Source: an uncultured virus (IMG/VR IMGVR_UViG_3300044630_001076) (taxonomy: Duplodnaviria; Heunggongvirae; Uroviricota; Caudoviricetes; Crassvirales). From it: a stretch of DNA of 20,000 bases. Positions 250-18,561 of this stretch are shown here, piece by piece. The stretch lies in IMG/VR virus record IMGVR_UViG_3300044630_001076. One strand, 5' to 3'. A program made the position numbers and the translations under genes. Under the pieces are notes generated by a model that did no database searches, was not told the DNA's origin, and was given only the letters and a program-made list of their open reading frames with translations. Positions within the stretch are counted from its first letter, which is position 1. Every line of letters begins with the position of its first letter.

Positions 250-507
250 ATGAAAGTAATAGGAAATAATATTTTAATCGTACCTCAAGAAGAGGAGACA
301 AAATCAAAAGGGGGCTTATTAATGTCAGCATCTGACACAAAAGAGCTACGCTATAAGAAGGCAACTGTGGCAGCCGTTGGCAATGCGGTCGAAGGGGTCA
401 TGCCAGGTAACTTTATCTACTTCGATAAAGCGGCAGGTCACGGGATCCGGGTGAACGAGGACATTTACACGGTGATAAGGGTTCAAGACGTGGTGGTGGT
501 GCTATAG
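250..507 (+). CDS. groES: Co-chaperonin GroES (Cpn10)
   Basis: 85 aa. MKVIGNNILIVP..EETKSKGGLLM (mobile loop), ATVAAVG, GVMPGNFIYF, IRVNEDIYTVIRVQDVVVVL follow the Cpn10 pattern. Confidence 0.92.
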   Translation: MKVIGNNILIVPQEEETKSKGGLLMSASDTKELRYKKATVAAVGNAVEGVMPGNFIYFDKAAGHGIRVNEDIYTVIRVQDVVVVL

Positions 508-990
508 TTCCACCTTAGGCTTGGACTGTTGCTTTTTAAAGTCCTCATTGGCCCGCTTTGCTACTCTATTGAACTGACGTTCGGAGTACTTAGTGGGCCT
601 TTTTATTTCTGTAATGGGCTTCTCGCCTAAAAGTCTAGCGTAAACATCACGCATAATGGCTCGGCCCTTGGCAGAAAGCTCATACATGGGCACAGTTCGG
701 TACGATCCTGGTCTAAAAATGCTGATGAGTCCCATATCAATCATATCTTTACGTTTTTTTGGGGCAAATCCTAGGATTTGGTTGTACTTCTCGATGGACT
801 TGACGTTAAATATGCCTTCCGAGTGGAGAAAACAGAGCATTTGGAAGTAAGGAGCCGAGAGTCCGTAGTGACGAAGGACATATTTCTGCACGAGACCTAT
901 GTATTTTAGGAAGTCGTGTTGTATCTCCATCCGTGTAACTGGAGGGTATTTTTTTGGTCGGTACACTTTTGGTACCATATATGTTTTCAT
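502..990 (-). CDS. Putative winged helix-turn-helix (MarR-like) DNA-binding protein
   Basis: 162 aa, basic. YGLSAPYFQMLCFLH...DMIDMGLISIFR...MYELSAKGRAIM resembles the MarR/wHTH pattern (gLs..qf..L..L ... L...GlI ... y.Lt.kG). Has its own minus-strand promoter box. Confidence 0.6.
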   Translation of the reverse strand: MKTYMVPKVYRPKKYPPVTRMEIQHDFLKYIGLVQKYVLRHYGLSAPYFQMLCFLHSEGIFNVKSIEKYNQILGFAPKKRKDMIDMGLISIFRPGSYRTVPMYELSAKGRAIMRDVYARLLGEKPITEIKRPTKYSERQFNRVAKRANEDFKKQQSKPKVEL

Positions 991-1023
991 TTGATTTTAT
1001 TTTTAACAAATTTACTATCTTTG
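990..1023 (+). promoter_or_regulatory. Bacteroidota sigma-A promoter (-33 TTTG, -7 TATCTTTG) for the small-ORF cluster
   Basis: TTTG at 990-993 and TATCTTTG at 1016-1023, a 22-nt spacer; ATG at 1047. Confidence 0.7.
1007..1014 (-). promoter_or_regulatory. Bacteroidota sigma-A -7 element (TAAATTTG on the minus strand) for the wHTH gene
   Basis: CAAATTTA at 1007-1014 reads TAAATTTG on the minus strand, an exact TAnnTTTG match 16 nt upstream of the ATG at 990. Confidence 0.6.
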
Positions 1024-1046: not shown

Positions 1047-1256
1047 ATGGCAAAGCAAAAAAGACCAGATACCCCATTAGCTTCAACACCTATGGTGCGT
1101 TGGGTTGATAATATAAAGAATCCTGAGAATGCGGAGTTTGTTACAGAAACAGGGTATAATTTAAGAAAACCAAATAGCCAAGTAACTCAACAAGAGTTTA
1201 ATATACGCTATAATATTAAACCAGATTCCATTCCAGTAATTAAAAGAAAAAAATAA
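1047..1256 (+). CDS. Small hypothetical protein (69 aa) with degenerate PLA-x-T motif and basic C-terminus
   Basis: First ORF after the promoter, A-rich leader, N-terminal RPDTPLASTPM, ends IKRKK; TAATG coupling to the next ORF. Confidence 0.7.
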   Translation: MAKQKRPDTPLASTPMVRWVDNIKNPENAEFVTETGYNLRKPNSQVTQQEFNIRYNIKPDSIPVIKRKK

Positions 1257-1435
1257 TGAAAGGTAAACACCCAGGCTTTAAAGCAGTAGCTGCTGGCATA
1301 GCCAAAAAACAAGGAATCCCAGTAGAGCGTGCAAATGCTATTTTAGCAGCAGGTGCTCGTAAGGCAGGAGCAAAAGCTGTTAAGGCTAACCCTGCATTAA
1401 AGAAAGTATCAGGCGTAATGAAAAAGAAAAAATAA
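1256..1435 (+). CDS. Small Lys/Ala-rich basic protein (59 aa), missing from the ORF track
   Basis: My translation: MKGKHPGFKAVAAGIAKKQGIPVERANAILAAGARKAGAKAVKANPALKKVSGVMKKKK*. The ATG overlaps the previous TAA (TAATG) and the ORF fills the gap exactly. Confidence 0.8.
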   Translation: MKGKHPGFKAVAAGIAKKQGIPVERANAILAAGARKAGAKAVKANPALKKVSGVMKKKK

Positions 1436-1436
1436 C

Positions 1437-1877
1437 ATGGCAACTAAGAAAGAAAAAGACAAAGATATTATCATGAGAAGTGCGAAGCCTGGTCTTCCGG
1501 TAAACATCTCTAAGCCAAGCATCCCTCAGAGTTCAAATGCTATGGGTGCTAGTGGCACGATCCTTAACAATGTTAATGTTCGTCCAACAAGAATGCAGAC
1601 AGCAAAGTATGATGCTACTTATTTGACAAGAGATTTAGGTGGTGCTTTAAAAAAATCAATTAAAAGTCCCAATTTAGTTGAAAAAGCTAAAGGTGTTTTA
1701 GGTACTGCAATAATGGGGGCAACTATCCCAGTTAATGCAGGAGTTTCTCTATTTAACGTAATTAGTGGTCAAGCAAGATATAATAAAAATAAAAGAGCAG
1801 GATTAGAGCGTGGAGATAAAGACTTTAAAGTTCGCAACTCATCTATTCCATTAGCAGAAACAGAGTTTAACAATTAA
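1437..1877 (+). CDS. Hypothetical basic protein (146 aa) with C-terminal VRNSSIPLAETEF motif
   Basis: Tightly packed ORF; Gly-rich, mildly hydrophobic segment GVLGTAIMGATIPVNAGVSLF; shared motif at 1830-1868. Confidence 0.75.
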   Translation: MATKKEKDKDIIMRSAKPGLPVNISKPSIPQSSNAMGASGTILNNVNVRPTRMQTAKYDATYLTRDLGGALKKSIKSPNLVEKAKGVLGTAIMGATIPVNAGVSLFNVISGQARYNKNKRAGLERGDKDFKVRNSSIPLAETEFNN

Positions 1878-1884
1878 AATAATT

Positions 1885-2103
1885 ATGGCAAAGGTTAAGT
1901 CAGATTCAACAACAGTTACTCAGGAAGCAAGAATGCGTATTTCTGAATTAATAAATCAAAAAAGAAAGCAAGAGGATGCACAAAAAGCAGCTGAACGAGC
2001 TAAAGCTAATTTTGATTCTGTTAGATTAAAAGATATGCAAAGAGGATATAAACTTCGTGATTCATCAATGCCTTTAGCACCAACACAATTTAACGATATG
2101 TAA
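1885..2103 (+). CDS. Hypothetical protein (72 aa) with C-terminal LRDSSMPLAPTQF motif
   Basis: Helical, charged ORF; shared motif at 2053-2091. Confidence 0.75.
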   Translation: MAKVKSDSTTVTQEARMRISELINQKRKQEDAQKAAERAKANFDSVRLKDMQRGYKLRDSSMPLAPTQFNDM

Positions 2104-2105
2104 TT

Positions 2106-2246
2106 ATGGCAAAGCAAGAACAAACACCAATGACACGTAAGATGCCTCCTCAAATGATGGGCATTAGCAAGATTGTCGCAGCATCTAAGATGATTGACTT
2201 AGTTAAGCAAGTAGCCGTTAAAAAGATGGCTAAAAAAATGCGTTAA
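2106..2246 (+). CDS. Small Met/Lys-rich protein (46 aa), missing from the ORF track
   Basis: My translation: MAKQEQTPMTRKMPPQMMGISKIVAASKMIDLVKQVAVKKMAKKMR*. Fills the gap between 2103 and 2248 with 2-nt and 1-nt spacers. Confidence 0.7.
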   Translation: MAKQEQTPMTRKMPPQMMGISKIVAASKMIDLVKQVAVKKMAKKMR

Positions 2247-2247
2247 T

Positions 2248-2436
2248 ATGGAAGGCTTAGGAGATTTGGTTGCTAAGGTAACTGAGACTACTGGCATCAA
2301 GAAAGTTGTAGAGGCTGCATTCCCAAATGGGGGCTGTGGCTGTGCACAACGTCAGCAGAAATTAAATGAAATGTTTCCATTCGGTTCTCCGAAGGATCAA
2401 TACAATATTGATAAAATAAATGAAAGCAACCGCTAA
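2248..2436 (+). CDS. Small phage hypothetical protein with GLGD...TGIK...CGC..R..KLN motif
   Basis: 62 aa. I recall the GLGDLVAKVTETTGIKKVV...GCGCAQRQQKLNEMFP pattern from uncultured aquatic phage proteins; function unknown. Confidence 0.75.
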   Translation: MEGLGDLVAKVTETTGIKKVVEAAFPNGGCGCAQRQQKLNEMFPFGSPKDQYNIDKINESNR

Positions 2437-2698
2437 ATATTACGCATCAAATCCGGAGGCTCGCAAAAAACGCTTAGAATATCAAGCTGAGTATAACAAG
2501 CGACCTGAGCAGTTAAAGAGACGTGCTGAATTGAATAAAATCAACAGAGATCGTGGACAATATGCTGACAAGGATGGCAAAGATATGAGCCACAAAAAGA
2601 ACGGCAGAGTTGTTGAAGAATCTGCTAGTAAAAATAGAGGCTCAAAAAGTAATTCAGCTGGTGACGTGCGTGCTCGAGGAACTAAAAAGAAAAAATAA
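2420..2698 (+). CDS. Small basic protein with a degenerate HNH-like (DGKD.sH...NR) motif
   Basis: 92 aa. KRRAELNK..R..G...DGKDMSHKKNGRVVEESASKNR resembles minimal phage HNH-type proteins (gDGkDvdH...s.NR) with a shortened loop. Confidence 0.5.
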   Translation: MKATAKYYASNPEARKKRLEYQAEYNKRPEQLKRRAELNKINRDRGQYADKDGKDMSHKKNGRVVEESASKNRGSKSNSAGDVRARGTKKKK

Positions 2699-3159
2699 TG
2701 GCTAAACAAAAACCATTTGTTAGAAACTCAAGTATCCCGTTGGCTGAAACTCAGTTTGAGCCAGATGCTACTCGTGTTAAAGAAACATATACAGCTTTTA
2801 TGCCTGCTGATCCAACAAAAATTGTTGTTAAGCGTTGGGCTGATGGAGAGTATAGACAAAATCCTGATGGATCAACTAGCACACACAAGATGGCTAGTTT
2901 TGAGGCAGATGGTAAGCATTACGCAGCTCCAACAGTTTATCCAAAAGATAGAAAAGGTACTAAGTCTCGTAATCCAAAAGATTGGTATGAAGCCCCTAAA
3001 AAGGGATGGGCATTTGCTGATACTGCAGAGGCACGTGGAGAAATGTATGGACCATTTAAAAATGCTAAAATTGCAAAAGATTTTGCGGCTAATGGATATA
3101 AAAATCAAGCAACACAAAAAGCAGCATTAGCAAAACTAAATGCTAAAAAGAAAAAGTAA
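2698..3159 (+). CDS. Hypothetical protein (153 aa) with N-terminal VRNSSIPLAETQF motif
   Basis: TAATG-coupled at both ends; motif at 2719-2757; core NPDGSTSTHKMASFEADGKHYAAPTVYP; ends AKKKK. Confidence 0.8.
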   Translation: MAKQKPFVRNSSIPLAETQFEPDATRVKETYTAFMPADPTKIVVKRWADGEYRQNPDGSTSTHKMASFEADGKHYAAPTVYPKDRKGTKSRNPKDWYEAPKKGWAFADTAEARGEMYGPFKNAKIAKDFAANGYKNQATQKAALAKLNAKKKK

Positions 3160-3464
3160 TGGCTGATATTAAGAATATGTTGGACCGATATGGTTTGGCT
3201 GGTGTTAACAAGCCTAAACGCCAAACTTCAGGTGGAAAGTCACACGTAGTTCTTGCTAAAGAAGGAGACCAAGTTAAGTTGATACGATTTGGCCAAGCAG
3301 GTGTAAAGACTAATCAAACTGTTGGTCAGCGTGAGGCATTTAAGTCTCGTCACGCAAAGAACATTTCAAAAGGCAAGATGTCAGCTGCGTGGTGGGCCGA
3401 TAAAGTTAAGTGGTCACCAAGTAAGACAGAATCTCCATCTAAAAAGTGGGTTAAAGGATCATAA
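3159..3464 (+). CDS. Basic viral hypothetical protein (K.iRFGq.G...R..F..RH...SA.wW...W type)
   Basis: 101 aa. KSHVVLAKEGDQVKLIRFGQAG...REAFKSRH...MSAAWWADKVKW is a pattern I recall from small proteins of aquatic phages and large DNA viruses (DUF5754-like, from memory, unverified). Confidence 0.7.
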   Translation: MADIKNMLDRYGLAGVNKPKRQTSGGKSHVVLAKEGDQVKLIRFGQAGVKTNQTVGQREAFKSRHAKNISKGKMSAAWWADKVKWSPSKTESPSKKWVKGS

Positions 3465-3465
3465 T

Positions 3466-3603
3466 ATGAAAAAGCTAAACAAATTAGGAGTGGAGAACTC
3501 TTTGTGGAATAACATTAGAGCGAGCAAAGGGTCAGGCAAAAAGCCCACTAAAGAAATGCTTAAGCAGGAGAAGAAGATAAAAAAGCAAGAGAAAAAAAAG
3601 TAA
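3466..3603 (+). CDS. Small Lys-rich protein (45 aa); true start is probably the ATG at 3466, not 3322
   Basis: MKKLNKLGVENSLWNNIRASKGSGKKPTKEMLKQEKKIKKQEKKK*. The ATG is 1 nt after the previous stop, whereas the 3322 start would overlap the upstream gene by 143 nt. Confidence 0.75.
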   Translation: MKKLNKLGVENSLWNNIRASKGSGKKPTKEMLKQEKKIKKQEKKK

Positions 3604-3611
3604 TATCTTTG
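3604..3611 (+). promoter_or_regulatory. Bacteroidota -7 element TATCTTTG
   Basis: Exact TAnnTTTG in the intergenic gap, 17 nt upstream of the ATG at 3629; identical to the box at 1016. Confidence 0.65.
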
Positions 3612-3628
3612 TAACATAAATAATAGTC

Positions 3629-3760
3629 ATGAAAAAAGTAACTAAAAAAACAGCGTTTGATATCAAAGAGGCAAGCAACCAAAAGTTGAAGCCAGGAGCA
3701 CGTAAGCACTATGCTGAGAATGCACAAGCTGCGATGAAGAACCAAAAGAAAAAGAAATAA
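3629..3760 (+). CDS. Small Lys-rich protein (43 aa), missing from the ORF track
   Basis: My translation: MKKVTKKTAFDIKEASNQKLKPGARKHYAENAQAAMKNQKKKK*. Follows the promoter box; next ATG is 1 nt after the stop. Confidence 0.72.
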   Translation: MKKVTKKTAFDIKEASNQKLKPGARKHYAENAQAAMKNQKKKK

Positions 3761-3761
3761 T

Positions 3762-4025
3762 ATGGGAGTTTTAAATTACACACAAGCAGGTCGTGCTGCT
3801 GCGGTAACCCCTTCTAACACGGTTAATATTCCTAGCGTATCAGGAGGAGATAACACCCAAGGGTGTACTCTTTACTCAGGATCGGGAGGAATCATTAAGG
3901 TGATGACAATTGGTGGTGACATTGTTACGTTTAACGCTGTTCCTGCTGGCACAATTTTGCAGGTAAAAGTTTTGCGTGTTTACGCTGAGGTAACAACTGC
4001 AACTGGAATTGTAGCTCTTTGGTAA
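3762..4025 (+). CDS. Head spike base protein-like (RcGTA Rcc01079 family)
   Basis: 87 aa, beta-rich. AAAVTPSNT...LYSGSGGIIKV...GDIVTFNAVPAGTILQVKVLRVYAEVTTATGIVALW matches the family pattern (A.avTPsD...lYvG.gG.l.v...g..vtf..vpaG.ilpv.v.rV.atgTtAt.ival). Confidence 0.75.
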   Translation: MGVLNYTQAGRAAAVTPSNTVNIPSVSGGDNTQGCTLYSGSGGIIKVMTIGGDIVTFNAVPAGTILQVKVLRVYAEVTTATGIVALW

Positions 4026-5428: not shown

Positions 5429-5935
5429 ATGAAAGATCAAAAAACAATTGAAAGAATTGCATTATTGCATCCAAAAGTAAAAGATGAAGCAATTCAAATT
5501 TATGATGAAATTGTAGCAGCGTTGACAGGGTCAGCAATGTGTCGATTTGCATTTACATTAAGAACGATTGCAGAACAAGATGCATTATATGCACAAGGTC
5601 GTACAAAACCTGGAGCAAAAGTTACAAACGCAAAGGGTGGTCAATCATACCATAACTATGGTCTTGCAATTGACATTGTTTTATTAATTGATAAAGACAA
5701 AAACGGAACATTTGAAACAGCAAGCTGGGATTTAAAAACAGATTTTGATGGCGATGGCAAAAGCGATTGGCAAGAAATCGTGGCAATCTTTAAACGTCAT
5801 GGATGGGATTGGGGAGGAGATTGGAAATTTTTTGATGCACCACATTTCCAAAAAACATATGGAAAATCTATTTCTGAATTATTAGCATTGCACAAAGCTA
5901 AAAAAGTAGATGCAAAAGGGTATGTTTTAATTTAA
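5429..5935 (+). CDS. Endolysin, peptidase M15 family (L-Ala-D-Glu endopeptidase, CwlK/Ply500-like)
   Basis: LRTIAEQDALYAQGRTKPG.KVTNAKGGQSYHNYGLAID (SxHxxGxAxD zinc motif) and WGGDW..FDAPHFQ (DxxH). Confidence 0.93.
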   Translation: MKDQKTIERIALLHPKVKDEAIQIYDEIVAALTGSAMCRFAFTLRTIAEQDALYAQGRTKPGAKVTNAKGGQSYHNYGLAIDIVLLIDKDKNGTFETASWDLKTDFDGDGKSDWQEIVAIFKRHGWDWGGDWKFFDAPHFQKTYGKSISELLALHKAKKVDAKGYVLI

Positions 5936-6429: not shown

Positions 6430-8979
6430 ATGGCAAGAATTAGTACATATCCAAACGACACTAATGTTATAGGTGCAGATAAATGGATTGGTTCAGATGC
6501 AAATAATAACAATCAAACCAAGAACTTTACAGCCGATGCAGTAGCCGCCTATTTTAACAGAGCAAGTGTTATTGACACAGGTCAGTTCTCTTGGAATTTT
6601 GTTCCATATTCAACTACAACTGTTCAGTCTGATAAAACATTTTCTTTAGTTGGATATACTAACACTAGTATTAATGTTAATCAGTTAGAAGGTATTTTAA
6701 AAGTATCTTTCTTAACTCTTGCTAATACAACTCCAGGAACATTTATTCAAGAGCAATGGTTAAACAAAATCATTCTTGTTCATATTCCTAATTCACCTAG
6801 TGCATACGGTTTATATAAGATTACAAACATTACCTTAACTGGTAATTTCTATTATTTAACTACTGATTTACAGCAAGCAAATACAGGAAATATTTTAGCT
6901 AATAATCCTGTTGCTTTTGGTCTTTTTGAAGGGGTATCAGGAACTAGTGGTATCTCAGGATCATCAGGTACATCGGGAACTAGTGGTATCAATGGAACCA
7001 TGGGTACTTCTGGAACAAGTGGTACGACAGGTACTTCTGGATCGTCTGGATTTACAGGAACATCAGGTACATCAGGTACGACAGGTACGTCAGGCACAAC
7101 AGGTACAAGTGGTATATCAGGTGATAGATATCGTGGAACATCAACAACTTCGTTTACATTAGGAACAGCAGGTACTATTACAACGCAGACTGGTTTGTCG
7201 TTTACTACTGCTCAATCTATTATTATTGTTTACAATGCTAGTAATTACCAAGAATCAGAGATTATATCTTATGATCCAGGTAATGGACTATTAACATTTG
7301 CGGCACCTAATAGAACAGTTGGTTCAGGAACATATAGTTCTTGGACAATAAACTTGGATGGTGCAAGTGGTGGTGATGGATCATCAGGTACTTCAGGTAC
7401 AAGTGGATTAAATGGTACAAGCGGTGTAAACGGAACTAGTGGTATTACAGGAACTTCGGGTACTACAGGTACGTCAGGGTCTTCGGGTACTACAGGTACA
7501 TCGGGTACATCAGGTGCAACAGGAACTTCGGGAACAACAGGAACCTCAGGTATTAATGGTACAAGTGGGTCAAGTGGTTTTAATGGGTCAAGTGGTACAT
7601 CAGGTTCTAGTGGACTTACAGGAACATCAGGTATCTCCGGATCTTCAGGAACCTCAGGTGCAAATGGTATAGCAGCTGGTAGAACTTATTATTTCAACCA
7701 ATCTCAAAACTCAGATGTATCACCATATAAGGTGTTATCAACTGATCCATCAGGAGCAGCACAGCAAACTATTACCAAGACATTAACTAATACACAGCAA
7801 AATGTATTAGTTCAGCAGTTTTTGACTCCTTCATTAGGATTTTCTGTTATTCCAGGTGGTGTACAGCGTTTTCATTGTCATTTCTTAAAACCAGCATCTA
7901 ATGATAATATTCAAACATATGTAACTATTGAACTTGCAAATTCAGCAGGAGTAGGATATGGAACGATATTAAGTACAGGTAATTCTGAAGTTGGATGGGT
8001 AGATGCATCAACTCCTGTTGAAACAACAGTTGATTTAACATTACCAACAACAACCATTCTGACTACAGATAGAATGATTGTTAAGATTTACCTTAATAAT
8101 GATGATAGCACAACACATAATGTAACTTGGTATACAGAAGGTACATCTTATTATTCATTTGTAATTACATCTGTTGGTGCAACTGCTGGTACATCTGGAG
8201 TAAATGGTACATCAGGTACTAGCGGAGTTAGTGGAACAACAGGCACAAGTGGAACGTCTGGATTAACAGGAACATCAGGTGTTAATGGAACGAGTGGTAC
8301 AGATGGTACGTCTGGTACAAGTGGTGCTACAGGAATTAGTGGAACTAGTGGTAGTAGTGGGACATCTGGAATAAGTGGAACAAGTGGTACTTCTGGAGTA
8401 AATGGAACATCAGGAGTAAGTGGTACATCTGGAGTAAGCGGAACATCTGGTGTTAATGGGGCGAACGGAACAAGTGGTGTTAGCGGAACATCAGGAGTTA
8501 ATGGGGCGAACGGAACATCGGGCGTTAATGGAACTTCAGGCGTCAACGGTGCAAATGGAACATCGGGCGTTAATGGTGCTAATGGTACTTCAGGAACATC
8601 AGGTTTGAATGGTGCAGGAGCAACCATATTTTATAGTACCTCAGGAACAGGATATACCCCTGGAGCTCAAGGTATTAGAGTTGTACCTGTTGGTATTTTA
8701 AGCATCAATACAACATATATTATTAGTGTTACTATTACCGGATCATCAAGATGGGCATCAGGTGCCTTTTTATGGAGGCCAATTGCTAATAGTCAACTTA
8801 GTAACTATGGAGTTGCAGCAGTATATTTCCCAACAAACACAAACATTAACGGACTTGCTTTATACGCAGTATCTACAACAGGTGGTGGTGGCGGAGCTAG
8901 TGATGTAGTTGTTAACTCAAATGCATTTGACATGACCGGTGCCAACTGGAGCTCCACAGTTAGAACAATAGGTAATTAA
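6430..8979 (+). CDS. Putative virion fibre/adhesin with three Gly-X-Y (Gly-Thr-Ser) repeat tracts
   Basis: 849 aa. N-terminal MARISTY...DKWIGSD...TKNFT segment (seen in structural proteins of Bacteroidota phages, from memory); three uninterrupted G-X-Y tracts separated by beta-rich globular domains; beta-rich C-terminal domain. Confidence 0.7.
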   Translation: MARISTYPNDTNVIGADKWIGSDANNNNQTKNFTADAVAAYFNRASVIDTGQFSWNFVPYSTTTVQSDKTFSLVGYTNTSINVNQLEGILKVSFLTLANTTPGTFIQEQWLNKIILVHIPNSPSAYGLYKITNITLTGNFYYLTTDLQQANTGNILANNPVAFGLFEGVSGTSGISGSSGTSGTSGINGTMGTSGTSGTTGTSGSSGFTGTSGTSGTTGTSGTTGTSGISGDRYRGTSTTSFTLGTAGTITTQTGLSFTTAQSIIIVYNASNYQESEIISYDPGNGLLTFAAPNRTVGSGTYSSWTINLDGASGGDGSSGTSGTSGLNGTSGVNGTSGITGTSGTTGTSGSSGTTGTSGTSGATGTSGTTGTSGINGTSGSSGFNGSSGTSGSSGLTGTSGISGSSGTSGANGIAAGRTYYFNQSQNSDVSPYKVLSTDPSGAAQQTITKTLTNTQQNVLVQQFLTPSLGFSVIPGGVQRFHCHFLKPASNDNIQTYVTIELANSAGVGYGTILSTGNSEVGWVDASTPVETTVDLTLPTTTILTTDRMIVKIYLNNDDSTTHNVTWYTEGTSYYSFVITSVGATAGTSGVNGTSGTSGVSGTTGTSGTSGLTGTSGVNGTSGTDGTSGTSGATGISGTSGSSGTSGISGTSGTSGVNGTSGVSGTSGVSGTSGVNGANGTSGVSGTSGVNGANGTSGVNGTSGVNGANGTSGVNGANGTSGTSGLNGAGATIFYSTSGTGYTPGAQGIRVVPVGILSINTTYIISVTITGSSRWASGAFLWRPIANSQLSNYGVAAVYFPTNTNINGLALYAVSTTGGGGGASDVVVNSNAFDMTGANWSSTVRTIGN
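6931..7122 (+). repeat. G-X-Y coding repeat tract 1 (about 21 triplets, GTS/GTT/GSS)
   Basis: 9-nt periodic GGN-ACN-TCN/AGT units; translation GVSGTSGISGSSGTS...GISG. Confidence 0.95.
7360..7668 (+). repeat. G-X-Y coding repeat tract 2 (about 34 triplets)
   Basis: Translation GASGGDGSSGTSGTSGLNGTS...GANG. Confidence 0.95.
8188..8613 (+). repeat. G-X-Y coding repeat tract 3 (about 47 triplets, including GVNGANGTS super-repeats)
   Basis: Translation GTSGVNGTS...GLNG; exact 21-nt duplicate gttaatggggcgaacggaaca at 8452-8472 and 8497-8517. Confidence 0.95.
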
Positions 8980-9332: not shown

Positions 9333-10184
9333 ATGGAAAGACTTTTTTTTCAGAGCTCAATGCCAAGAGCAGGTAGTACTGTTCTTCAAAATATATTGGC
9401 TCAAAATCCTGATATATACGCCACCCCAACAAGTGGCGTATTTGATTTACTTCAATCAGCGAAGTTTACTTATAGCACAGCTAGAGAGTTCTTAGCACAA
9501 GATCCAATTTTAATGAATAAGGCTTTCTTATCTTTCTGCAGAGGAGGGATAGAAAACTTTTATACTCCACTTACAGATAAAAAGTATGTCATAGATAAAT
9601 GTCGTGGGTGGGGACTTTCTTATGAGTTTATTAACAAGATACAAGACGATCCTAAAATTATTTGTATTGTAAGGGACTTGCGTGATATATTCGCATCATT
9701 AGAGAAGAAATATAGGCAGTATCCTGAGATGCACAACCCCATGGTTAATTGGCATAATCTAGAAGGAACGACAACACAGAAGCGTGTTGAGCTGTGGGAG
9801 AAAACTGTTCCACTTGGAATATCCTTAGATAGTCTTAGTGAAGTGTTTAGAATGGGTCTAAATAATAATATTCATTTTATAAAATATGAGGACTTATGCA
9901 ATGACCCATCATTAGAGATGACTAAGATATATCAATTCTTTGGTATACCATATTACCAACACGACTTTGATAATATTGAACAGATTACACAAGAGGATGA
10001 TTCTTTGTATGGGCCATTTGGTGACCACAAAATACAACGCAAATTAGAAAAAGTTTCTTCTCGTGCTGAAGATATTTTGGGTAAAGACGTTTGCAATTAT
10101 ATCTACAATAAGCATAACTGGTATTTTAATAAATTTAATTATACTCATGATAATAGCTTTGATCGGACAGCCTGGGGCAGGTAA
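9333..10184 (+). CDS. PAPS-dependent sulfotransferase
   Basis: 5'-PSB loop SSMPRAGSTVLQNIL; IDKCR; 3'-PB motif IICIVRDLRDIFAS; FIKYEDLCNDP...KIYQFFG. Confidence 0.9.
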   Translation: MERLFFQSSMPRAGSTVLQNILAQNPDIYATPTSGVFDLLQSAKFTYSTAREFLAQDPILMNKAFLSFCRGGIENFYTPLTDKKYVIDKCRGWGLSYEFINKIQDDPKIICIVRDLRDIFASLEKKYRQYPEMHNPMVNWHNLEGTTTQKRVELWEKTVPLGISLDSLSEVFRMGLNNNIHFIKYEDLCNDPSLEMTKIYQFFGIPYYQHDFDNIEQITQEDDSLYGPFGDHKIQRKLEKVSSRAEDILGKDVCNYIYNKHNWYFNKFNYTHDNSFDRTAWGR

Positions 10185-10572
10185 AACTACGCTTGCTAAA
10201 GAATTATTAAAACACAAAGATTATTATCACATCGATGGTGATGATCTTCGTGAGTTATTTAATAATAAAGATTATAGCAGAGAAGGTAGATTAAAAAATC
10301 TAAACAGAGCTAGTGACATAGCCCACTATCTTAGTAGAGAAAAGCCTGTTATACTTTCCTTGATTTATCCTTATCAAGAAGCAAGAGACTATTTAAATGC
10401 ATTGCATAGCGATGTCAAATGGTGCTGGCTTAAAACAGATGAGCAAAGAAAAAATCCAGAACTTCAGGTTGATGATTTCGAGAACCCTACAAACTCTATA
10501 AACTCTATAGAGATTAATACTAGCGAATCAATCCGTTCTTGTTTATTACATCTATTACTTTTTGTGCCTTAA
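10147..10572 (+). CDS. cysC: Adenylyl-sulfate (APS) kinase-like P-loop kinase, compact 141-aa form; true start at 10147
   Basis: MIIALIGQPGAGKTTLA (P-loop) and HIDGDDLRELFNNKDYSREGRLKNL..A..IA (CysC LDGD.lR...dlgfs.edR.eN pattern), SLIYPY..AR. Start overlaps the sulfotransferase end. Confidence 0.8.
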   Translation: MIIALIGQPGAGKTTLAKELLKHKDYYHIDGDDLRELFNNKDYSREGRLKNLNRASDIAHYLSREKPVILSLIYPYQEARDYLNALHSDVKWCWLKTDEQRKNPELQVDDFENPTNSINSIEINTSESIRSCLLHLLLFVP

Positions 10573-12562
10573 TGGATGTCTGACATTCAAACATTCGATC
10601 AGTATCTTTGTGAGCTGGGCACCAATTCCAATCGCCTTTATCAAATGTTAAATTAGGATCGTTCCAACATCCGTTGCATACTGATTTATTTTCGACACGA
10701 AAACATTGAAATTCGTGCCATTGCACGGAAAAGTTTGCAATCATAACCACAGGTTTCCCTAATCCCCAAGCAAGCCAGCTAACTCCACTACCAAGTCCAA
10801 TAAAGAAATCACTATTGTCTATGTAGCACATTGTATCCTGAATATTAGGACTGATTATCTGCTCGCAATTATCGAATGGGTTTTCTTCTAATGATACATT
10901 AATTACCTTGTACCCTTTCTCGTGCAGATAGTTAATAACTTCTTGCCATCCTTCTTTGGTCCAAAACTTACATCCGGCTGTTGAGTTAGTTGCAATAGTA
11001 ACTGTCTTCTGCAGTATCAATTTTACATTAGTAGGTTTCCATTTAAGATTAGGCTTAATCTCCTCATACTCTAATCCAAGAATGTTAGTCGCAGCTTGTT
11101 GTAATGGTATGGTATTTGGCAATACAGGCTCCTTGTTTGAATCGTAGAACCAACCTATGTTATATTGTGCATGAATATTCTCAACTGTTGATCCGGGCTC
11201 TACTATTTCTATCTCAGGATAGTCAAGTATACTGTTCCAAAAACTTGACAAAATTACTTTGCAGTTATGCTTTTTCTGAAACTCTAAAGCGTAAGGTGCC
11301 CAAGCAATATTGTCACCAAGTGATTTGCTGTCGATACAAATCAAAACACGCTTTCCTTCTAAATTAAGCGTACTTTCATATATCTTCTTCCCATGTTCGT
11401 ATACTTCAAGCGACCATTTCTCGTAGTATTGTCTGTTTAATTTTGCCCATGAATTGTTTTGAATTGTGTCCTCATAAACAACTTCACCTGTACCTGTTTT
11501 CCATACTAGGTGGAACCAAGATTTGACAGCAGATTTTATTTCAAAATAAGGGCCGTTGACATTATGTTCTATTATCTGAACGTCTTGATCTTCGATTGGA
11601 TTTGATAAGCAATCTATGTAAGTAGTACATAGTTGATTTGCAAATTCCTCTGAATCATCATAAGTAGGTGTTATATAATTTGCCTTGATTGTATTTAAGT
11701 CTGTATCAATAGGCTGTATGTAAGCCGCATATCTTCCGTGATACTGTGGTAGGTTGTGAGCAATGATTGGCAAGTTGTATGCAATAGCTTCACGCAATGC
11801 AAGTGGATTGCATTCAATTGTGCTATTAAACATAAATACGTTAGCCTCCTTTAAAAATGAGTCCACATCATCACGCTCTCCTAATACTCTAACATTTGGT
11901 GGCAAATCATTCATCAAAGGCTCCCAATAGTGTTGGAAATTACCAGCTTGATTTCCAATAAAATAAAATGTCCAATCAGGATTCTTTCTTGCAATCTCTA
12001 TGCCCTCAGCTTGATTCTTTCCTGGTGTCCACAAACCAACATTAACGACATACTTTGTGTCTTCTTGTTTTTCAGATTCTTTAGGGTCAATAGGGAATTC
12101 AATAACATACTTTAACTTTGTAGGCATATTCTTAAATGTAACCTCTTTATGATAACTAGAGCAGAATGCATATGCATCAGGATGAAACTTTCTTTCTTTA
12201 TCCGGATTAAAAAATACATCGTGACAAGTCTCAATAATTCTATATACTCTATTGGTATTATAGAGTTCACTCATCACCTCGTTGTCGAATCTCTCAGCCA
12301 CATCATGTAGGTGAATGATATCAGGTTTAATATTTGCTACTATGTCAAGTAGTTCTGATTTGGTATCACCAAGAGTATATACTTTGTTACCAAGTATTTC
12401 TTTTATCGCATTACGATGCACTACGAAATCAGCTGTGTAGAACTGATATTCTACTACGTGTATATCGTACATTTCGTCTAGTAATTGTATCTGCTTAAGA
12501 AGAAAAGATGGCATCCCTCCTGTAGATAAGTGAGGGGCTAAGTATAAAATCTTGGATTTCAT
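10520..12562 (-). CDS. Fusion of an N-terminal GT4 (GT-B) glycosyltransferase and a C-terminal TibC/Aah-like autotransporter O-heptosyltransferase
   Basis: N-half: PHLSTGGMP, NVGLWTPGKNQ, VLGERDDV, S.IECNPLALRE (E-x7-E). C-half: YYEKWSLEVY..G..IY...L.LEGKRVLI...SKSLGDNIAW, STAGCKFW, FFIGLGSGVSWLAWGLGKPVVMI, and the four-Cys motif CNGCWND...WCP.H.....FEC characteristic of TibC/Aah. Confidence 0.85.
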   Translation of the reverse strand: MKSKILYLAPHLSTGGMPSFLLKQIQLLDEMYDIHVVEYQFYTADFVVHRNAIKEILGNKVYTLGDTKSELLDIVANIKPDIIHLHDVAERFDNEVMSELYNTNRVYRIIETCHDVFFNPDKERKFHPDAYAFCSSYHKEVTFKNMPTKLKYVIEFPIDPKESEKQEDTKYVVNVGLWTPGKNQAEGIEIARKNPDWTFYFIGNQAGNFQHYWEPLMNDLPPNVRVLGERDDVDSFLKEANVFMFNSTIECNPLALREAIAYNLPIIAHNLPQYHGRYAAYIQPIDTDLNTIKANYITPTYDDSEEFANQLCTTYIDCLSNPIEDQDVQIIEHNVNGPYFEIKSAVKSWFHLVWKTGTGEVVYEDTIQNNSWAKLNRQYYEKWSLEVYEHGKKIYESTLNLEGKRVLICIDSKSLGDNIAWAPYALEFQKKHNCKVILSSFWNSILDYPEIEIVEPGSTVENIHAQYNIGWFYDSNKEPVLPNTIPLQQAATNILGLEYEEIKPNLKWKPTNVKLILQKTVTIATNSTAGCKFWTKEGWQEVINYLHEKGYKVINVSLEENPFDNCEQIISPNIQDTMCYIDNSDFFIGLGSGVSWLAWGLGKPVVMIANFSVQWHEFQCFRVENKSVCNGCWNDPNLTFDKGDWNWCPAHKDTDRMFECQTSIKAQKVIDVINKNGLIR

Positions 12563-13097: not shown

Positions 13098-13681
13098 TGA
13101 AATCTCCATTTTATTTTATCGTAAAGCCAAAAGATGGTAAGCGATATGATGATGAGCGTAATGGCATCATTATATCTACGTCTAAGGAAGATTATAAAGC
13201 CTCCACTCGTGAGGCTGTTGTAATTGAAACGCCTATTGGATACGATGGTCCTGTTCAGATTGGCGATACAGTCATCGTTCACCACAACACATTTAAGTAC
13301 TACTACGATATGCGTGGTCGAGAGAAGTCATCGTGGAATTATTTCCGTGATGATTTATTTTTTATCGATGATCCATACGCATACAAGCATGAGTGTGATA
13401 CATGGAAAGGAATTGGCCGGTATGTGTTTGTTTCTCCTGTCGAGAACGACCATACTGGCATCACTACCATTGATGCAGAAAAGCCCCTTGTTGGCAAGAT
13501 AAAGTATGCGAATGATGAAGTACTTGACCTTGGTCTTAAAGTGGGCGATATGGTCACGTTTGAGCCTGAATCAGAGTATCCATTTTGGATTGATGGCGAG
13601 AAGGTTTACCGTATGTACACAAAGAACTTAACAATCATATTAGATGAGCAAGATAACAGAGTTAAAGAAGCGAATAATTGA
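13097..13681 (+). CDS. Protein with two tandem GroES-like (Cpn10-fold) domains
   Basis: Domain 1: FIVKP...NGIII...EAVVIETP....PVQIGDTVIVHH. Domain 2: GIGRYVFVSPVE...GI...GKIKY......LKVGDMVTF...SEY...IDGEKVYRM...LTIIL. Confidence 0.65.
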   Translation: MKSPFYFIVKPKDGKRYDDERNGIIISTSKEDYKASTREAVVIETPIGYDGPVQIGDTVIVHHNTFKYYYDMRGREKSSWNYFRDDLFFIDDPYAYKHECDTWKGIGRYVFVSPVENDHTGITTIDAEKPLVGKIKYANDEVLDLGLKVGDMVTFEPESEYPFWIDGEKVYRMYTKNLTIILDEQDNRVKEANN

Positions 13682-13925
13682 TTCAGGATACAAAGCTGTA
13701 GAAGAGTTAATTAAGGTTGCAGAAGAAAGAATCGTTACTCACGCTGAGGATGACTTAAGTGCAGATAAACTAAAGAATGCAGCTCAGGCTAAGAAGTTAG
13801 CTATTATGGATGCATTTGAGATTCTTAAGCGTGTAGAGGAGGAAAGCAACATCATTGATGGTGTTGTAAATAATCAGGTTAATACTAATCGTGGATTTGC
13901 TGAATCTAGAGCAAAAACAAAATGA
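13644..13925 (+). CDS. Putative terminase small subunit
   Basis: 93-aa helical protein directly upstream of, and ATGA-coupled to, the large terminase. Assignment is by position only. Confidence 0.5.
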   Translation: MSKITELKKRIIDSGYKAVEELIKVAEERIVTHAEDDLSADKLKNAAQAKKLAIMDAFEILKRVEEESNIIDGVVNNQVNTNRGFAESRAKTK

Positions 13926-16135
13926 GTTTATACAAAATAGTAGATAATGTTGTTCCCCAAAAAATACTTGACAAGAAAAATGCCAAGAAAGAATGGGAGT
14001 ATGGCTATAACCCTGAGTTTGATATTGTCATTATATCTAAAGATGGAACTTTGGGTGATATATATGATATTCAAAATCTTAGAGTAGGATTGCCAAAGAC
14101 TCCCGAAAAGGTATCATATAAATCTGATAAGTGGGAGCCAATCATATTACCTAAGGAATTGTCACGCATTAAAACAATCTTTGATTGGAATAGGCGTGAT
14201 AACTCTTTTAAGAACCAATGGGTAGATTTTATTGAACAAGAGTTTGACCGAAGGGAGTATGGATATTGGTTTATTAATAATGGTGTGAAGACTTATATGT
14301 CAGGTCATCATTATATGTACCTCACATGGTCTAAGACTGATGTTGGTCATCCAGACTTTCGTGAGTCAAACAGAATATTCTTTTTATTCTTTGAAGCCTG
14401 CAAAGCAGACACAAGATGCTTTGGGATGTGCTATCTAAAAAATAGACGTTCTGGTTTTTCTTTTATGGCCTCCTCTGTTTCCGTAGATATTGCTACCTTA
14501 GCAAAAGATGCTCGTATTGGTATGGTCTCTAAAACAGGACCTGATGCTAAAAAGATGTTTACGGATAAGGTTGTACCTATTGCCAACAACTATCCATTCT
14601 TTTTCCAGCCTGTGCGTGATGGTATGACCACACCAAAGACTGAACTTGCATTCCGTGTTCCTGCAGAAAAGATTACACGCAAGAATATGGATCAGGAGAA
14701 AGATGAAGCGATGGATGGGTTAGATACATCTATTGACTGGCGTAACACAGCAGACAACTCGTACGATGGTGAGAAGCTTCGTTTCTTGATTGAGGATGAG
14801 GCTGCTAAGTTAGAAAAGCCAATGAACATTGAAAATGGTTGGCGTATTCGTAAGACTTGTCTTCGTCTAGGTGCCAGGATCATTGGTAAGTGTATGATGG
14901 GTTCTACATCGAACGCATTAGATAAAGGTGGAGAAAACTATAAAAAATTATATTATGACTCAGACGTCACAAAAAGAAACAAGAACGGTCAGACTATATC
15001 GGGTCTTTATTCGCTCTTTATACCGATGGAGTATAACTTTGAGGGATACATTGATCAATACGGTCACGCAGTATTAGAGAAACCTGAAAAGCCGGTAAAG
15101 TCAGCAGAAGGAACTTGGATAACAGAAGGTGTTATTGAGTATTGGAATAATGAGGTATCCTCATTAAAAGCAAATCCCGATGCACTTAATGAATTCTATC
15201 GACAGTTCCCAAGAACAGAGTCTCATGCATTCCGTGATGAGACTAAATCATCTTTGTATAATTTAACTAAAATCTATCAGCAGATTGATTATAACGATGG
15301 GCTAATACAGGATCACGTATTAACTCGTGGATTCTTTCATTGGAAAAATGGGGAGAAAGATACAGAGGTTATTTGGACACCAGATAAGAATGGTAGATTC
15401 TTGGTATCATGGATACCTGAAATTGCATTGCGTAATAATTTTATAACTAAAAATGGAACACGTTATCCTCTCAACGAACACATCGGGGCATTTGGATGTG
15501 ACCCTTACGATATTTCGGGTGCTACTTTTGGTGGGTCGAATGGCTCTCTTCACGGTCTTACTAAGTTCAATATGGCGAATGCTCCGTCAAATGCGTTCTT
15601 CTTAGAATACATTGCTCGTCCACAGACAGCTGAGACATTCTTTGAAGAAGTACTGATGGCTTGTGTATTTTATGGTATGCCAATACTTGCCGAGAATAAC
15701 AAAGCTCGTTTGCTGTACCACTTTAAGAATAGAGGCTATAGAGGATTCTCAATGAACAGACCTGACAAGCACAAAACTAAATTGTCATTTACTGAGATTG
15801 AGATTGGCGGTATACCATCCTCGAGTGAGGATATGAAACAAGCACACGCAGCTGGGATTGGAACTTACATTGAGAAGTATGTAGGATATGACCTAGAAGG
15901 AACATACAGGAATCCTGACGAAATTGGCGATATGCCATTTACTAGAACTCTATTGGATTGGTCTAAATTTAATGTGAACGATAGAACAAAGTATGATGCT
16001 TCTATCAGTTCAGGATTAGCGATTATGGCTAACCAAAAGCATATTTACCTGCCCGAGAAAAAAGAGTCAAAAATTAGCATTAAATTTGCAAGATACGATA
16101 ACAGCGGTTCAGCGAGTAGACTGAAAAATATATGA
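13922..16135 (+). CDS. terL: Terminase large subunit
   Basis: 737 aa. Walker A variant YLKNRRSGFS, Walker B FLIEDEAAK, coupling motif MMGST, RNase H-like nuclease motifs FGCDPYD, LAENN and KYDASISSGLA. Confidence 0.9.
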   Translation: MSLYKIVDNVVPQKILDKKNAKKEWEYGYNPEFDIVIISKDGTLGDIYDIQNLRVGLPKTPEKVSYKSDKWEPIILPKELSRIKTIFDWNRRDNSFKNQWVDFIEQEFDRREYGYWFINNGVKTYMSGHHYMYLTWSKTDVGHPDFRESNRIFFLFFEACKADTRCFGMCYLKNRRSGFSFMASSVSVDIATLAKDARIGMVSKTGPDAKKMFTDKVVPIANNYPFFFQPVRDGMTTPKTELAFRVPAEKITRKNMDQEKDEAMDGLDTSIDWRNTADNSYDGEKLRFLIEDEAAKLEKPMNIENGWRIRKTCLRLGARIIGKCMMGSTSNALDKGGENYKKLYYDSDVTKRNKNGQTISGLYSLFIPMEYNFEGYIDQYGHAVLEKPEKPVKSAEGTWITEGVIEYWNNEVSSLKANPDALNEFYRQFPRTESHAFRDETKSSLYNLTKIYQQIDYNDGLIQDHVLTRGFFHWKNGEKDTEVIWTPDKNGRFLVSWIPEIALRNNFITKNGTRYPLNEHIGAFGCDPYDISGATFGGSNGSLHGLTKFNMANAPSNAFFLEYIARPQTAETFFEEVLMACVFYGMPILAENNKARLLYHFKNRGYRGFSMNRPDKHKTKLSFTEIEIGGIPSSSEDMKQAHAAGIGTYIEKYVGYDLEGTYRNPDEIGDMPFTRTLLDWSKFNVNDRTKYDASISSGLAIMANQKHIYLPEKKESKISIKFARYDNSGSASRLKNI

Positions 16136-18561
16136 ACGACCCTTTAATAATGATTAATCCGACCAACTTCCCAACACAGTTGGCAACGGATGCAGAGAAA
16201 GCATCTCAAGAGTTTGGATTAAAAGTAGGACAAAGTATCATGTGGGAATGGTTTGCCAAGACAGGCAACAATTGTCGCTACTATTCTCAATGGATTGACT
16301 TTCACCGCATTAGGCTATATGCTCGTGGTGAACAATCAATCGCAAAATATAAAAGTCAATTCGAAGTTGATGGCGATATGTCGCATATTAACTTAGACTG
16401 GACTCCTGTGCCCATTATTCCTAAGTTTGTTGATATCGTAGTTAATGGAATGAATGACCGCCTTTTTGAGGTAAAAACATATGCACAGGATTCTATGTCT
16501 ATGGAAAGAAGAACTCAATTCCAAGAGATGGTTGAGGCTGATATGGTGTCAAAAGAATTTTTAATTCAGACACAGCAAGAGTTTGGTATTGATGCATTTA
16601 ATGTTCCTCTTCAAGATTTACCTGAAAATGATCAAGAATTAAATCTTTATATGCAACTTAGATATAAGCCTGCTATTGAGATTGCAGAAGAGGAGGCAAT
16701 AAATACAATTTTAGATGTTAACCATTATAGCGATATAAGAAAACGAGTTGATTATGATATTACTACTATTGGTATTGGGATGGTCAAACATTCTTTTGTT
16801 CCAGGAACAGGAGTTAGGGTAGAATATGTTGACCCTGCTAATATGGTATATAGTTACACGGAATCGCCAACATTTGACGATTGTTTCTATTTTGGTGAAG
16901 TTAAGCAAGTACCGATTACTGAACTTATTAAAATCAAGCCAGATATTACTAATGAAGAGTTGGCAGAAATTCAACAACTTGGTACAGCTTGGTATAATTA
17001 TTATGGTGTACTTCGTCCTTATCGTAGTGATTTATTTAATCGTGATGTTGTTACGCTTATGTATTTCAATTACAAAACCGATAAGACATATGTTTATAAA
17101 AAGAAATACACAGACAACGGAGGAACAAGAGTAATTGAGAAGGATGAAAACTTCCAAGTTCCGGAAGGGATGGAGGAGCGTTTTGAACGTATAGAAAAAC
17201 GTATCGATGTTTGGTACGAAGGTGTAATGGTTATGGGATCAAGTTACTTGCTTAAGTGGGAACTTGCTAAGAACATGGTTCGTCCTAAGTCTGCATCTCA
17301 ATATGCATTGCCTCAGTACATTGCTGTAGCACCACGTATGTATAAAGGAGTTATTGAGTCATTGACTCGTAGAATGATTCCTTTTGCAGACTTAATTCAA
17401 TTGACCCATTTAAAGTTGCAACAAGTATTACAGCGTGTTGTACCTGATGGTGTTTACATTGATGCAGATGGTATCAATGAAGTTGACTTGGGTACAGGTG
17501 CTGCCTACAATCCAGAAGATGCCTTGCGTTTATACTTCCAAACAGGTAGTGTTATTGGTAGAAGTATGACCGTAGATGGTGATCTTAACCATGGGAAAAT
17601 ACCGATTCAAGAACTTAATACTAATAGCGGACAAGGAAAAATTACTGCATTGATTAATGCATACAATCAGTACCTATCAATGATCAGGGATGTTACCGGG
17701 TTAAATGAAGCTAGAGATGCATCAACTCCAAACCCTGATGCATTGGTAGGTGTACAAAAACTTGCAGCTCTTAATTCAAACACAGCTACTCGCCATATAT
17801 TGGAGGGAAGTTTATTTATTACTAAGCGTTTATCGGAAGCATTATCTTGCCGTATTGCTGATATTTTAGAATACTCTGATTTTAAAGAAGAGTTTACTAT
17901 GCAAATTGGTAAGTATGCAGTTGGTGTTTTAGATGAAATCAAGCATTTGTATTTACATGATTTTGGTGTGTTTATCGAAGTAGCACCTGATGAAGAAGAA
18001 AAGGCTCAATTAGAGGCTAATATTCAAGTTGCCATGCAACGTGACCAAATTAGTTTAGAAGATGCTATTGATATTCGTCAGATGAAGAATCTTAAGTTGG
18101 CTAATGAATTGCTTAAGCTAAAGCGTAAGAAGAAGCAACAAGAAGACATGAAGAATGAGCAAGCTAAAATTCAAATGCAAACTCAAGGAAACATTCAGTC
18201 ATCTCAAGCATCTGCTCAGGCTACACTACAAAAGGTTCAAGCAGAGTCACAAGCTAAAGCACAACTTGCTCAAGCTCAAATGCAGTTTGATATTCAACGT
18301 ATGCAGGCAGAGGCTCAGATTAAAGAGCAATTAATGCAAGTTGAATTTTCTTATAATATGCAACTTAAAGGAATGGAGGTAGATAAGATTAAGCAGTTGG
18401 AGACAGACAGGGAAAAAGCTAAGGATAATAGAACTAAATTACAAGCAACACAGCAGTCTAAGTTAATTGAGCAACGCCAAAAAGACTTACCTGCTATGAA
18501 CTTTGAGTCTGAGGAAGATTCATTAGATGGCTTTGATTTAGAGCAGTTTAATCCAAGATAA
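16132..18561 (+). CDS. Portal protein
   Basis: 809 aa immediately after terL (ATGA overlap). RLYARGEQ, PIIPKFVDIVVNG, VEYVDPAN, IRDVTGLNEARD and a long Gln/Ala-rich C-terminal helix typical of podovirus-type portals. Confidence 0.85.
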   Translation: MNDPLIMINPTNFPTQLATDAEKASQEFGLKVGQSIMWEWFAKTGNNCRYYSQWIDFHRIRLYARGEQSIAKYKSQFEVDGDMSHINLDWTPVPIIPKFVDIVVNGMNDRLFEVKTYAQDSMSMERRTQFQEMVEADMVSKEFLIQTQQEFGIDAFNVPLQDLPENDQELNLYMQLRYKPAIEIAEEEAINTILDVNHYSDIRKRVDYDITTIGIGMVKHSFVPGTGVRVEYVDPANMVYSYTESPTFDDCFYFGEVKQVPITELIKIKPDITNEELAEIQQLGTAWYNYYGVLRPYRSDLFNRDVVTLMYFNYKTDKTYVYKKKYTDNGGTRVIEKDENFQVPEGMEERFERIEKRIDVWYEGVMVMGSSYLLKWELAKNMVRPKSASQYALPQYIAVAPRMYKGVIESLTRRMIPFADLIQLTHLKLQQVLQRVVPDGVYIDADGINEVDLGTGAAYNPEDALRLYFQTGSVIGRSMTVDGDLNHGKIPIQELNTNSGQGKITALINAYNQYLSMIRDVTGLNEARDASTPNPDALVGVQKLAALNSNTATRHILEGSLFITKRLSEALSCRIADILEYSDFKEEFTMQIGKYAVGVLDEIKHLYLHDFGVFIEVAPDEEEKAQLEANIQVAMQRDQISLEDAIDIRQMKNLKLANELLKLKRKKKQQEDMKNEQAKIQMQTQGNIQSSQASAQATLQKVQAESQAKAQLAQAQMQFDIQRMQAEAQIKEQLMQVEFSYNMQLKGMEVDKIKQLETDREKAKDNRTKLQATQQSKLIEQRQKDLPAMNFESEEDSLDGFDLEQFNPR

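Follow-up and report, generated by a model that had tools for sequence, protein, structure and literature searches.

A short peptide, here called the tag, recurs at the ends of small and otherwise unrelated proteins encoded by an uncultured virus (IMG/VR record IMGVR_UViG_3300044630_001076), of which one stretch of 20 kb, hereafter the window, was analysed. In its strong form the tag reads V/L-R-[ND]-S-S-[IM]-P-L-A-x-T-x-F and is found on three open reading frames (ORFs) of the window, at the C-terminal end of two and at the N-terminal end of the third; a short form opens a fourth ORF. The existence of the tag, its terminal position and its portability between unrelated protein bodies were observed directly, and it is confined to one gene cluster within one phage lineage. 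The reading favoured here, tentatively, is that the tag serves as a portable docking or virion-loading signal on polymorphic internal proteins and binds one conserved component of head assembly. The four copies in the window are as follows:

1062-1094, plus strand: short tag KRPDTPLASTPM (RPDTPLASTPM; short form KRPDTPLASTP), N-terminus of ORF 1047-1256
1830-1868, plus strand: tag copy 1, VRNSSIPLAETEF, near the C-terminus of ORF 1437-1877, two residues from the stop codon
2053-2091, plus strand: tag copy 2, LRDSSMPLAPTQF, near the C-terminus of ORF 1885-2103
2719-2757, plus strand: tag copy 3, VRNSSIPLAETQF, near the N-terminus of ORF 2698-3159

An earlier note on this DNA had drawn attention to these peptides, and the ORF and motif positions it gave are correct for all four. 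Run on a six-frame translation of the window, its regular expression matched the three strong copies and nothing else; the shorter string PLA.T added only ORF 1047. Copies 1 and 3, as the note had described, are identical at 12 of 13 residues and differ at seven synonymous codons. They share 29 of 39 nucleotides and have one non-synonymous codon difference, so that a recent duplication at the DNA level is excluded. The bodies of the proteins had been called dissimilar; after removal of the tag, the four gave no mutual BLAST match and belong to four different families. The fourth copy, which had been regarded as weak, proved to be real, since KRPDTPLA.TP also opens two homologues of ORF 2698 (P0020 and P0021).

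Among 27 database matches to ORF 2698, 22 carry an N-terminal tag: 16 in the long form, five in a short form (GRDIPLANT, RKDTPLAST or RPDTPLANT) and one (P0027) with the same tag on a different body. The remaining five are shorter and lack the whole N-terminal extension, and hence the tag. A tblastn search with ORF 2698 against 50,697 phage records gave no match. The long tag was also back-translated into a DNA pattern, which was scanned in viral contigs, metagenome contigs, and 185,579 bacterial and archaeal genomes. Nine loci matched in the viral contigs; all seven examined proved to be in-frame terminal tags, and the other two lie in contigs with tags already seen. Metagenome contigs yielded 25 loci, 18 of them (G+C content 0.35-0.39) with an in-frame terminal tag and seven with no in-frame ORF match. 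The bacterial and archaeal genomes gave six loci, about the number expected by chance according to a reasoned estimate of our own; two fall within an ORF, neither of them as a terminal tag in a phage-like context.

A census with a relaxed regular expression over all loci of low G+C content returned 49 distinct ORFs. The single mid-protein match was the sulfotransferase of the window, which was rejected as a chance match, leaving 48 tagged proteins, none with an internal tag: the tag lies within 24 residues of the C-terminus in 38 and starts at residue 6-10 in 10. Once stripped of the tag, the 48 bodies formed 16 families under single-linkage BLAST clustering. Tagged proteins are 57-175 amino acids in length, and none of 21 tagged representatives matched a Pfam or PHROG family.

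The tag occurs in three forms: form A, VR[ND]SSIPLAxT[QE]F followed by [PN][DE]; form B, [NK]RDYPLSx(SPxP)TF; and form C, GRD[ITMV]PLPx[TS]..[FW]. The family of ORF 1437 carries forms A and B (one member has RDYPLS), and another family carries forms B and C. Because homologous bodies bear different forms, the three are variants of one tag, the core of which is a basic residue, Asp or Asn, a hydrophobic residue, Pro-Leu, a small residue, any residue, Ser or Thr, and an aromatic residue a few positions on. A profile built from 16 A-type sequences was searched against the window, three complete related genomes (G004, G005 and G006) and two untagged relatives, about 300 kb in all. True tags scored 16.7-41.3 bits and everything else 5.0 bits or less, a separation far beyond chance. 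The best non-tag match, at 4 bits, was the string MNKSIPLA[NS]LTS in the middle of a conserved early-region protein of 200 amino acids (L028:6098-6700, corresponding to G005 26098-26700, minus strand), which has homologues in G004 and G006; this match is probably due to chance. A literature search on tag strings returned unrelated text only, and no printed description of the tag was found by that search.

Conservation within body families is higher for the tag than for the remainder of the protein. The mean pairwise identities of the tag and of the rest of the protein in four families were 0.83 and 0.43, 0.95 and 0.50, 0.80 and 0.74, and 0.87 and 0.78, respectively, showing that the tag is under purifying selection as a peptide. 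With 48 proteins in 16 families, all tagged at a terminus and with the tag more conserved than the body, the central proposal of the earlier note, a portable terminal motif selected as peptide and not as DNA, is upheld. In a structural model of ORF 2698, the first 30 residues, including the tag, have a predicted local distance difference test (pLDDT) score of about 50 and no secondary structure, and the body scores 66-88 block by block. A fold search with this model against the PDB gave no match at E<=0.001, and a protein-atlas look-up returned viral hypothetical clusters only, with scores of at most 0.82. The model of the ORF 1437 family, built from a 6-row alignment, is of low confidence throughout (pLDDT 48.7). 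Co-folding of the G005 capsid monomer (alignment of 54 rows) with residues 1-40 of ORF 2698 scored 0.00 in two runs without controls, a result that carries no weight for or against binding.

The tagged genes occupy the same place in each genome in which they are found. In all eight relatives anchored on a divergent repressor-like gene, one to three tagged ORFs are the first genes past the divergent intergenic region. The complete relatives G004, G005 and G006 share one order: GroEL, GroES, the repressor-like gene, tagged and untagged small basic ORFs, lysis genes and the tail fibre. The tagged genes are on the same strand as the genes for lysis, tail fibre, terminase, portal, scaffold and capsid. 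The set of tagged proteins is polymorphic: their bodies are poorly shared between the complete genomes even where the capsid proteins are 88-94% identical. In the window, the cluster is composed as follows (pI, isoelectric point):

990..1023, plus strand: promoter-like element of the Bacteroidota type, TTTG-N22-TAnnTTTG, 24 nucleotides before the first tagged ORF
1047..1256, plus strand: ORF of 69 amino acids, pI 10.0, N-terminal short tag; first gene of the rightward operon
1256..1435, plus strand: ORF of 59 amino acids, pI 11.5, untagged, basic, ending in KKKK
1437..1877, plus strand: ORF of 146 amino acids, pI 10.2, C-terminal tag; nine tagged homologues in its family
1885..2103, plus strand: ORF of 72 amino acids, pI 9.9, C-terminal tag; body a singleton in body-only BLAST
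2106..2246, plus strand: ORF of 46 amino acids, pI 10.8, N-terminus MAKQEQTPMTRKMPP
2248..2436, plus strand: ORF of 62 amino acids, pI 6.1, untagged, with a GGCGC motif; widespread in unrelated marine phages
2420..2698, plus strand: ORF of 92 amino acids, untagged, very basic, phrog_6437 (E 3e-24)
2698..3159, plus strand: ORF of 153 amino acids, pI 9.8, N-terminal tag, then a variable linker, then a folded body of unknown fold
3159..3464, plus strand: ORF of 101 amino acids, untagged, basic, phrog_7595
3469-3603 and 3629-3760, plus strand: two untagged lysine-rich ORFs of 43-44 amino acids

Ten of the 11 small ORFs between 1047 and 3760 have a pI of 9.8-11.5, and the four tagged ones fall at 9.8-10.2. 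None of the cluster proteins matched Pfam, and the PHROG families that they hit have no assigned function; the one exception is ORF 3159, for which a second alignment covers an internal part of phrog_220, 'minor head protein and DNA pilot'. ORF 2420 is 38% identical over 78 amino acids to gp080 of Cellulophaga phage phi38:1, which is annotated as 'structural protein' (E 7e-7 in a small database). The N-terminus MAKQEQTPMTRKMPP of ORF 2106 may be a degenerate tag; this ORF of 46 amino acids is present in the tagged genomes and absent from the two untagged relatives. The promoter-like element at 990..1023 follows the consensus of Bacteroidota promoters, and the pattern has two matches in the window against 1.36 expected, which is not significant by itself. 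Parts of 1433-3818 are matched at 96-100% identity by contigs from the RNA libraries of three studies, although such contigs are no proof of transcription, as DNA may be present in the libraries; other parts of the window lack cover in the same libraries, and no weight is put on these gaps.

Several further features of the cluster concern its untagged members and gene junctions. The lysine-rich C-termini (KKKK, and RKK on ORF 1047) correspond to A-runs that immediately precede the start codon of the next gene (1240-1256, 1420-1437, 2683-2700, 3144-3161 and 3745-3764), and TAATG overlaps of stop and start codons are common. Translation in Bacteroidota typically starts at A-rich sites free of a Shine-Dalgarno sequence, and the poly-lysine tails may in part be a by-product of such a start in the downstream gene. 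The C-terminally tagged ORFs have no lysine tail. The untagged ORFs 2248 and 3159 are widespread in unrelated marine phages, namely Roseobacter phages of the CRP group and SIO1, cyanophages and Vibrio phage ICP1; ORF 2248 is 82% identical in DNA to Roseobacter phage CRP-9 over 76 nucleotides, at a site that overlaps the CRP-9 match to ORF 3159.

The window comes from a short-tailed phage with relatives in culture that have Bacteroidota hosts, and the host of this freshwater phage is probably also a member of the Bacteroidota. By portal identity, the nearest annotated records are the uncultured podovirus MW202828.1 (65%), Maribacter phage Panino (49%), the Flavobacterium 'elemo' phages (47%) and Cellulophaga phage phi38:1 (35%). 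Parts of the region are present in lake-water and other freshwater runs from many studies, and the capsid family of the tagged lineage is very common in metagenomes, where 8000 of 8000 scored candidates were significant. The main features of the window, from left to right, are these:

3-507: GroEL homologue (3' end) and GroES
502..990, minus strand: divergent repressor-like gene, 162 amino acids; left border of the tagged cluster in all relatives
1047-4025: run of small ORFs
after the small ORFs: membrane proteins, then an M15 endolysin (endolysin 5429-5935)
6430-8979: collagen-like tail fibre, 849 amino acids
9333-10184: sulfotransferase
10180-10572: APS-kinase-like P-loop protein
10520-12562, minus strand: two-domain glycosyltransferase (GT4 and GT9), 680 amino acids
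13097-13681: second GroES-like protein, 194 amino acids, phrog_13932
13644-13925: ORF of 93 amino acids between the second GroES-like gene and the large terminase
13922-16135: large terminase
16132-18561: portal
18601-19722: scaffold-like acidic protein
19753 onward: capsid protein, start only

The second GroES-like gene lies two genes upstream of the large terminase and is kept in all relatives, including the untagged ones. The tail fibre contains four long collagen-like blocks of G-T-S/G-x-S repeats, and many variants of these repeats, differing in length or rearranged, occur among the RNA-library contigs. Between the tail fibre and the terminase stands the module of sulfotransferase, APS-kinase-like protein and glycosyltransferase (9333-12562), which could act as a modifier of virion proteins or of glycans on the host surface.

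In the virion-loading reading, a docking peptide of the form [RK]-[ND]-(S-S)-hydrophobic-P-L-[ASP]-x-[TS]-x-[FW] would be displayed on the disordered end of small, very basic proteins, produced from the start of an operon in which genes for lysis, tail fibre and head are also found. The peptide would bind one conserved component of the assembling head, perhaps the inner surface of the capsid, the scaffold or the portal, and unrelated bodies would thereby be co-packaged into the head and probably delivered with the DNA to the next host. It is conceivable, if doubtful, that an abundant freshwater lineage uses in this way a protease-independent cargo-loading peptide, functional at either terminus and thus the equivalent in phages of the encapsulin peptides, to fill an HK97-fold head with interchangeable small basic proteins that are carried into the next host along with the genome. 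Such cargo would possibly consist of anti-defence or DNA-organising factors. Two annotations were counted in favour of loading, the 'structural protein' label on the homologue of ORF 2420 and the alignment of ORF 3159 to 'minor head protein and DNA pilot'. The earlier note had suggested capsid targeting; of this idea, the setting stands, namely small, basic and polymorphic proteins, an operon on the strand of the structural and lysis genes, and an untagged neighbour with a homologue annotated as structural; loading into the virion and the reader, i.e., the component that the tag would bind, are postulated.

If the virion-loading reading were correct, it would be of use in several ways. Detailed knowledge of how tailed-phage heads choose their accessory proteins comes from very few systems, T4 above all. 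The tag would provide a sequence rule for spotting injected cargo, and with it candidate anti-defence factors, in uncultured phages, as well as a means of putting foreign proteins into phages of probable Bacteroidota hosts; peptide pull-down would be a direct route to the reader.

Several observations weigh against virion loading. The head module and GroEL/GroES are also present in MW202828.1 and the Flavobacterium elemo phages, none of which has tagged ORFs, and the tags are therefore accessory. No head protein specific to the tagged phages stands out. A comparison of gene content between three tagged and two untagged genomes found, as tagged-only, small early ORFs, a lipoprotein, tail fibres, a glycosyltransferase and the ORF of 46 amino acids; with three genomes set against two, this list cannot point to the reader. 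About 15 kb separate the tagged genes (1047-3159) from the capsid gene (19753); the former adjoin GroEL/GroES and the lysis genes, a position that would also suit a role outside the virion. A head protease able to free cargo from a scaffold was sought among 26 proteins of G005 (the head and tail module and some others), none of which matched a protease PHROG. The 'structural protein' label of gp080 is no more than a depositor annotation, and gp080 is itself untagged; the accessions sought were not found in the searched text of PMC13288928, which is uninformative on the proteomics of phi38:1. Binding, a head component as the partner, packaging and injection are all inferred steps of the model.

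A non-virion role could take the form of docking on a hub. In this alternative, which is possible though rather unlikely, the tag would be a short linear motif that brings small proteins to one conserved host protein of replication, transcription, proteolysis or the envelope, or to the phage GroEL-type chaperonin encoded immediately upstream, and the variable bodies would act on or through the hub during infection. A terminal, disordered and extremely conserved tag on variable bodies is typical of hub-binding motifs, and the dispensability of the tags for the head module, seen in untagged relatives that build the same heads, also fits. In all tagged genomes seen, the cluster comes straight after GroEL/GroES, but the untagged relatives have GroEL/GroES as well. 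The host-type promoter-like element before the cluster is a weak point in favour; the location of the tagged genes on the strand of the lysis and structural genes counts against a hub. The six matches to the long tag in the 185,579 bacterial and archaeal genomes are roughly the number estimated for chance, and none lies at the end of a protein in a Bacteroidota genome; therefore, no host protein carries the long form, although a shorter core could still be shared. To our knowledge, the tag is also unlike clamp-binding, SSB-tail and GroES mobile-loop motifs, which counts against a hub. In PMC13288928 (Table 3), GroEL of Cellulophaga phage phi38:1 is reported as detected, in methylated form, in free-virion preparations. 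If the phage chaperonin truly travels with particles, this would bear on the chaperonin as reader.

It is improbable that the tag is instead the recognition site of an enzyme, whether a protease that trims the protein ends or the phage glycosyltransferase or sulfotransferase, with the APS kinase, modifying the conserved Ser/Thr (or the Tyr of RDYPLS). The hydroxyl residue four positions past the proline is kept in all subtypes, and such modifying enzymes are encoded within the window (sulfotransferase, APS-kinase-like protein and two-domain glycosyltransferase). I, M, F, V, Y and T all occur immediately ahead of P-L, so that tyrosine sulfation cannot be general. Glycosylation in Bacteroidota uses a motif of the type D-[ST]-[AILVMT], and the tag fits neither this nor the N-x-S/T sequon, as Asp often replaces Asn. 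All three complete tagged genomes have a homologue of the large glycosyltransferase and neither untagged relative does, but this co-occurrence involves three genomes against two, which differ in many other genes. The maturation-protease site that the earlier note had entertained lost ground, both through the absence of any protease family among the 26 proteins examined from the complete tagged relative G005 and through the variability of the residue after P-L-A.

Very improbable is a hetero-oligomer (e.g., DNA-condensing or membrane-active) in which tags bind each other or a cluster protein with no outside reader: several tagged proteins stand side by side in a genome, with overlapping stop and start codons that suggest matched stoichiometry, and N- and C-terminal copies coexist in one genome, but some relatives have a single tagged ORF detectable by regular expression (L071) and the models suggest no folded tag-tag unit.

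For the favoured reading of the tag as a virion-loading signal, the closest models are known cargo systems. Phage T4 directs its internal proteins to the scaffolding core by a capsid-targeting sequence (CTS) that the prohead protease then cleaves off; no sequence likeness between the CTS and the tag is known to us. The internal proteins of T4 (IPI, IPII, IPIII and Alt) are diverse, polymorphic, small and basic, and have only the CTS in common (PMC3012670). The tag is likewise shared by unrelated small, basic, polymorphic proteins (16 body families; pI 9.8-10.2 for the ORFs of the window). Unlike the CTS, which is N-terminal only and never C-terminal, the tag occurs at either end, in 38 of 48 cases the C-terminal one. 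Among the 26 proteins examined from G005, none matched a protease.

In podophages, cargo or ejection proteins such as gp7, gp16 and gp20 of P22 and gp45 and gp46 of crAss001 are large and have no known shared terminal tag, in contrast to the tagged proteins of 57-175 amino acids, which are defined by the tag only. Such proteins are kept within the head and delivered to the host, which for crAss001 is a member of the Bacteroidota (PMC10172136).

A further parallel is provided by the scaffolding protein of phage 80alpha and CpmB of SaPI1, unrelated proteins that reportedly share the short capsid-binding end of the scaffold and so enter the procapsid (PMC5644958). The scaffold of the window ends in VRTTGQPLDKGGFKVTALDNDHGNRLRIK, and its segment VRTTGQPLDKGGF (19593-19631, in the region of residues 331-343) is in register with the tag at five of 13 residues (V1, R2, P7, L8 and F13). 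Mimicry of the scaffold is a weak lead only, because the 146 other sequences of a 147-row alignment do not keep its P-L and the tag profile does not match VRTTGQPLDKGGF. The scaffold tail, VRTTGQPLDKGGF...NRLRIK, closes with a basic R-L-R-I-K hook. This hook is reminiscent of the end of the 80alpha scaffold.

Encapsulins offer the other main comparison. Their cargo-loading peptides (CLPs) are short, stand at either terminus of unrelated cargo proteins and suffice for loading into an HK97-fold shell (PMC7355545). The tag resembles them in its occurrence at either terminus of unrelated proteins (10 N-terminal and 38 C-terminal). It differs from them in consensus and in gene arrangement, since encapsulin cargo genes adjoin the shell gene and a distance of about 15 kb lies between tagged genes and capsid gene, and in that shell binding by the tag is putative. 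By analogy with the two systems, the tag would appear to work in the manner of a CTS or a CLP while belonging to neither class.

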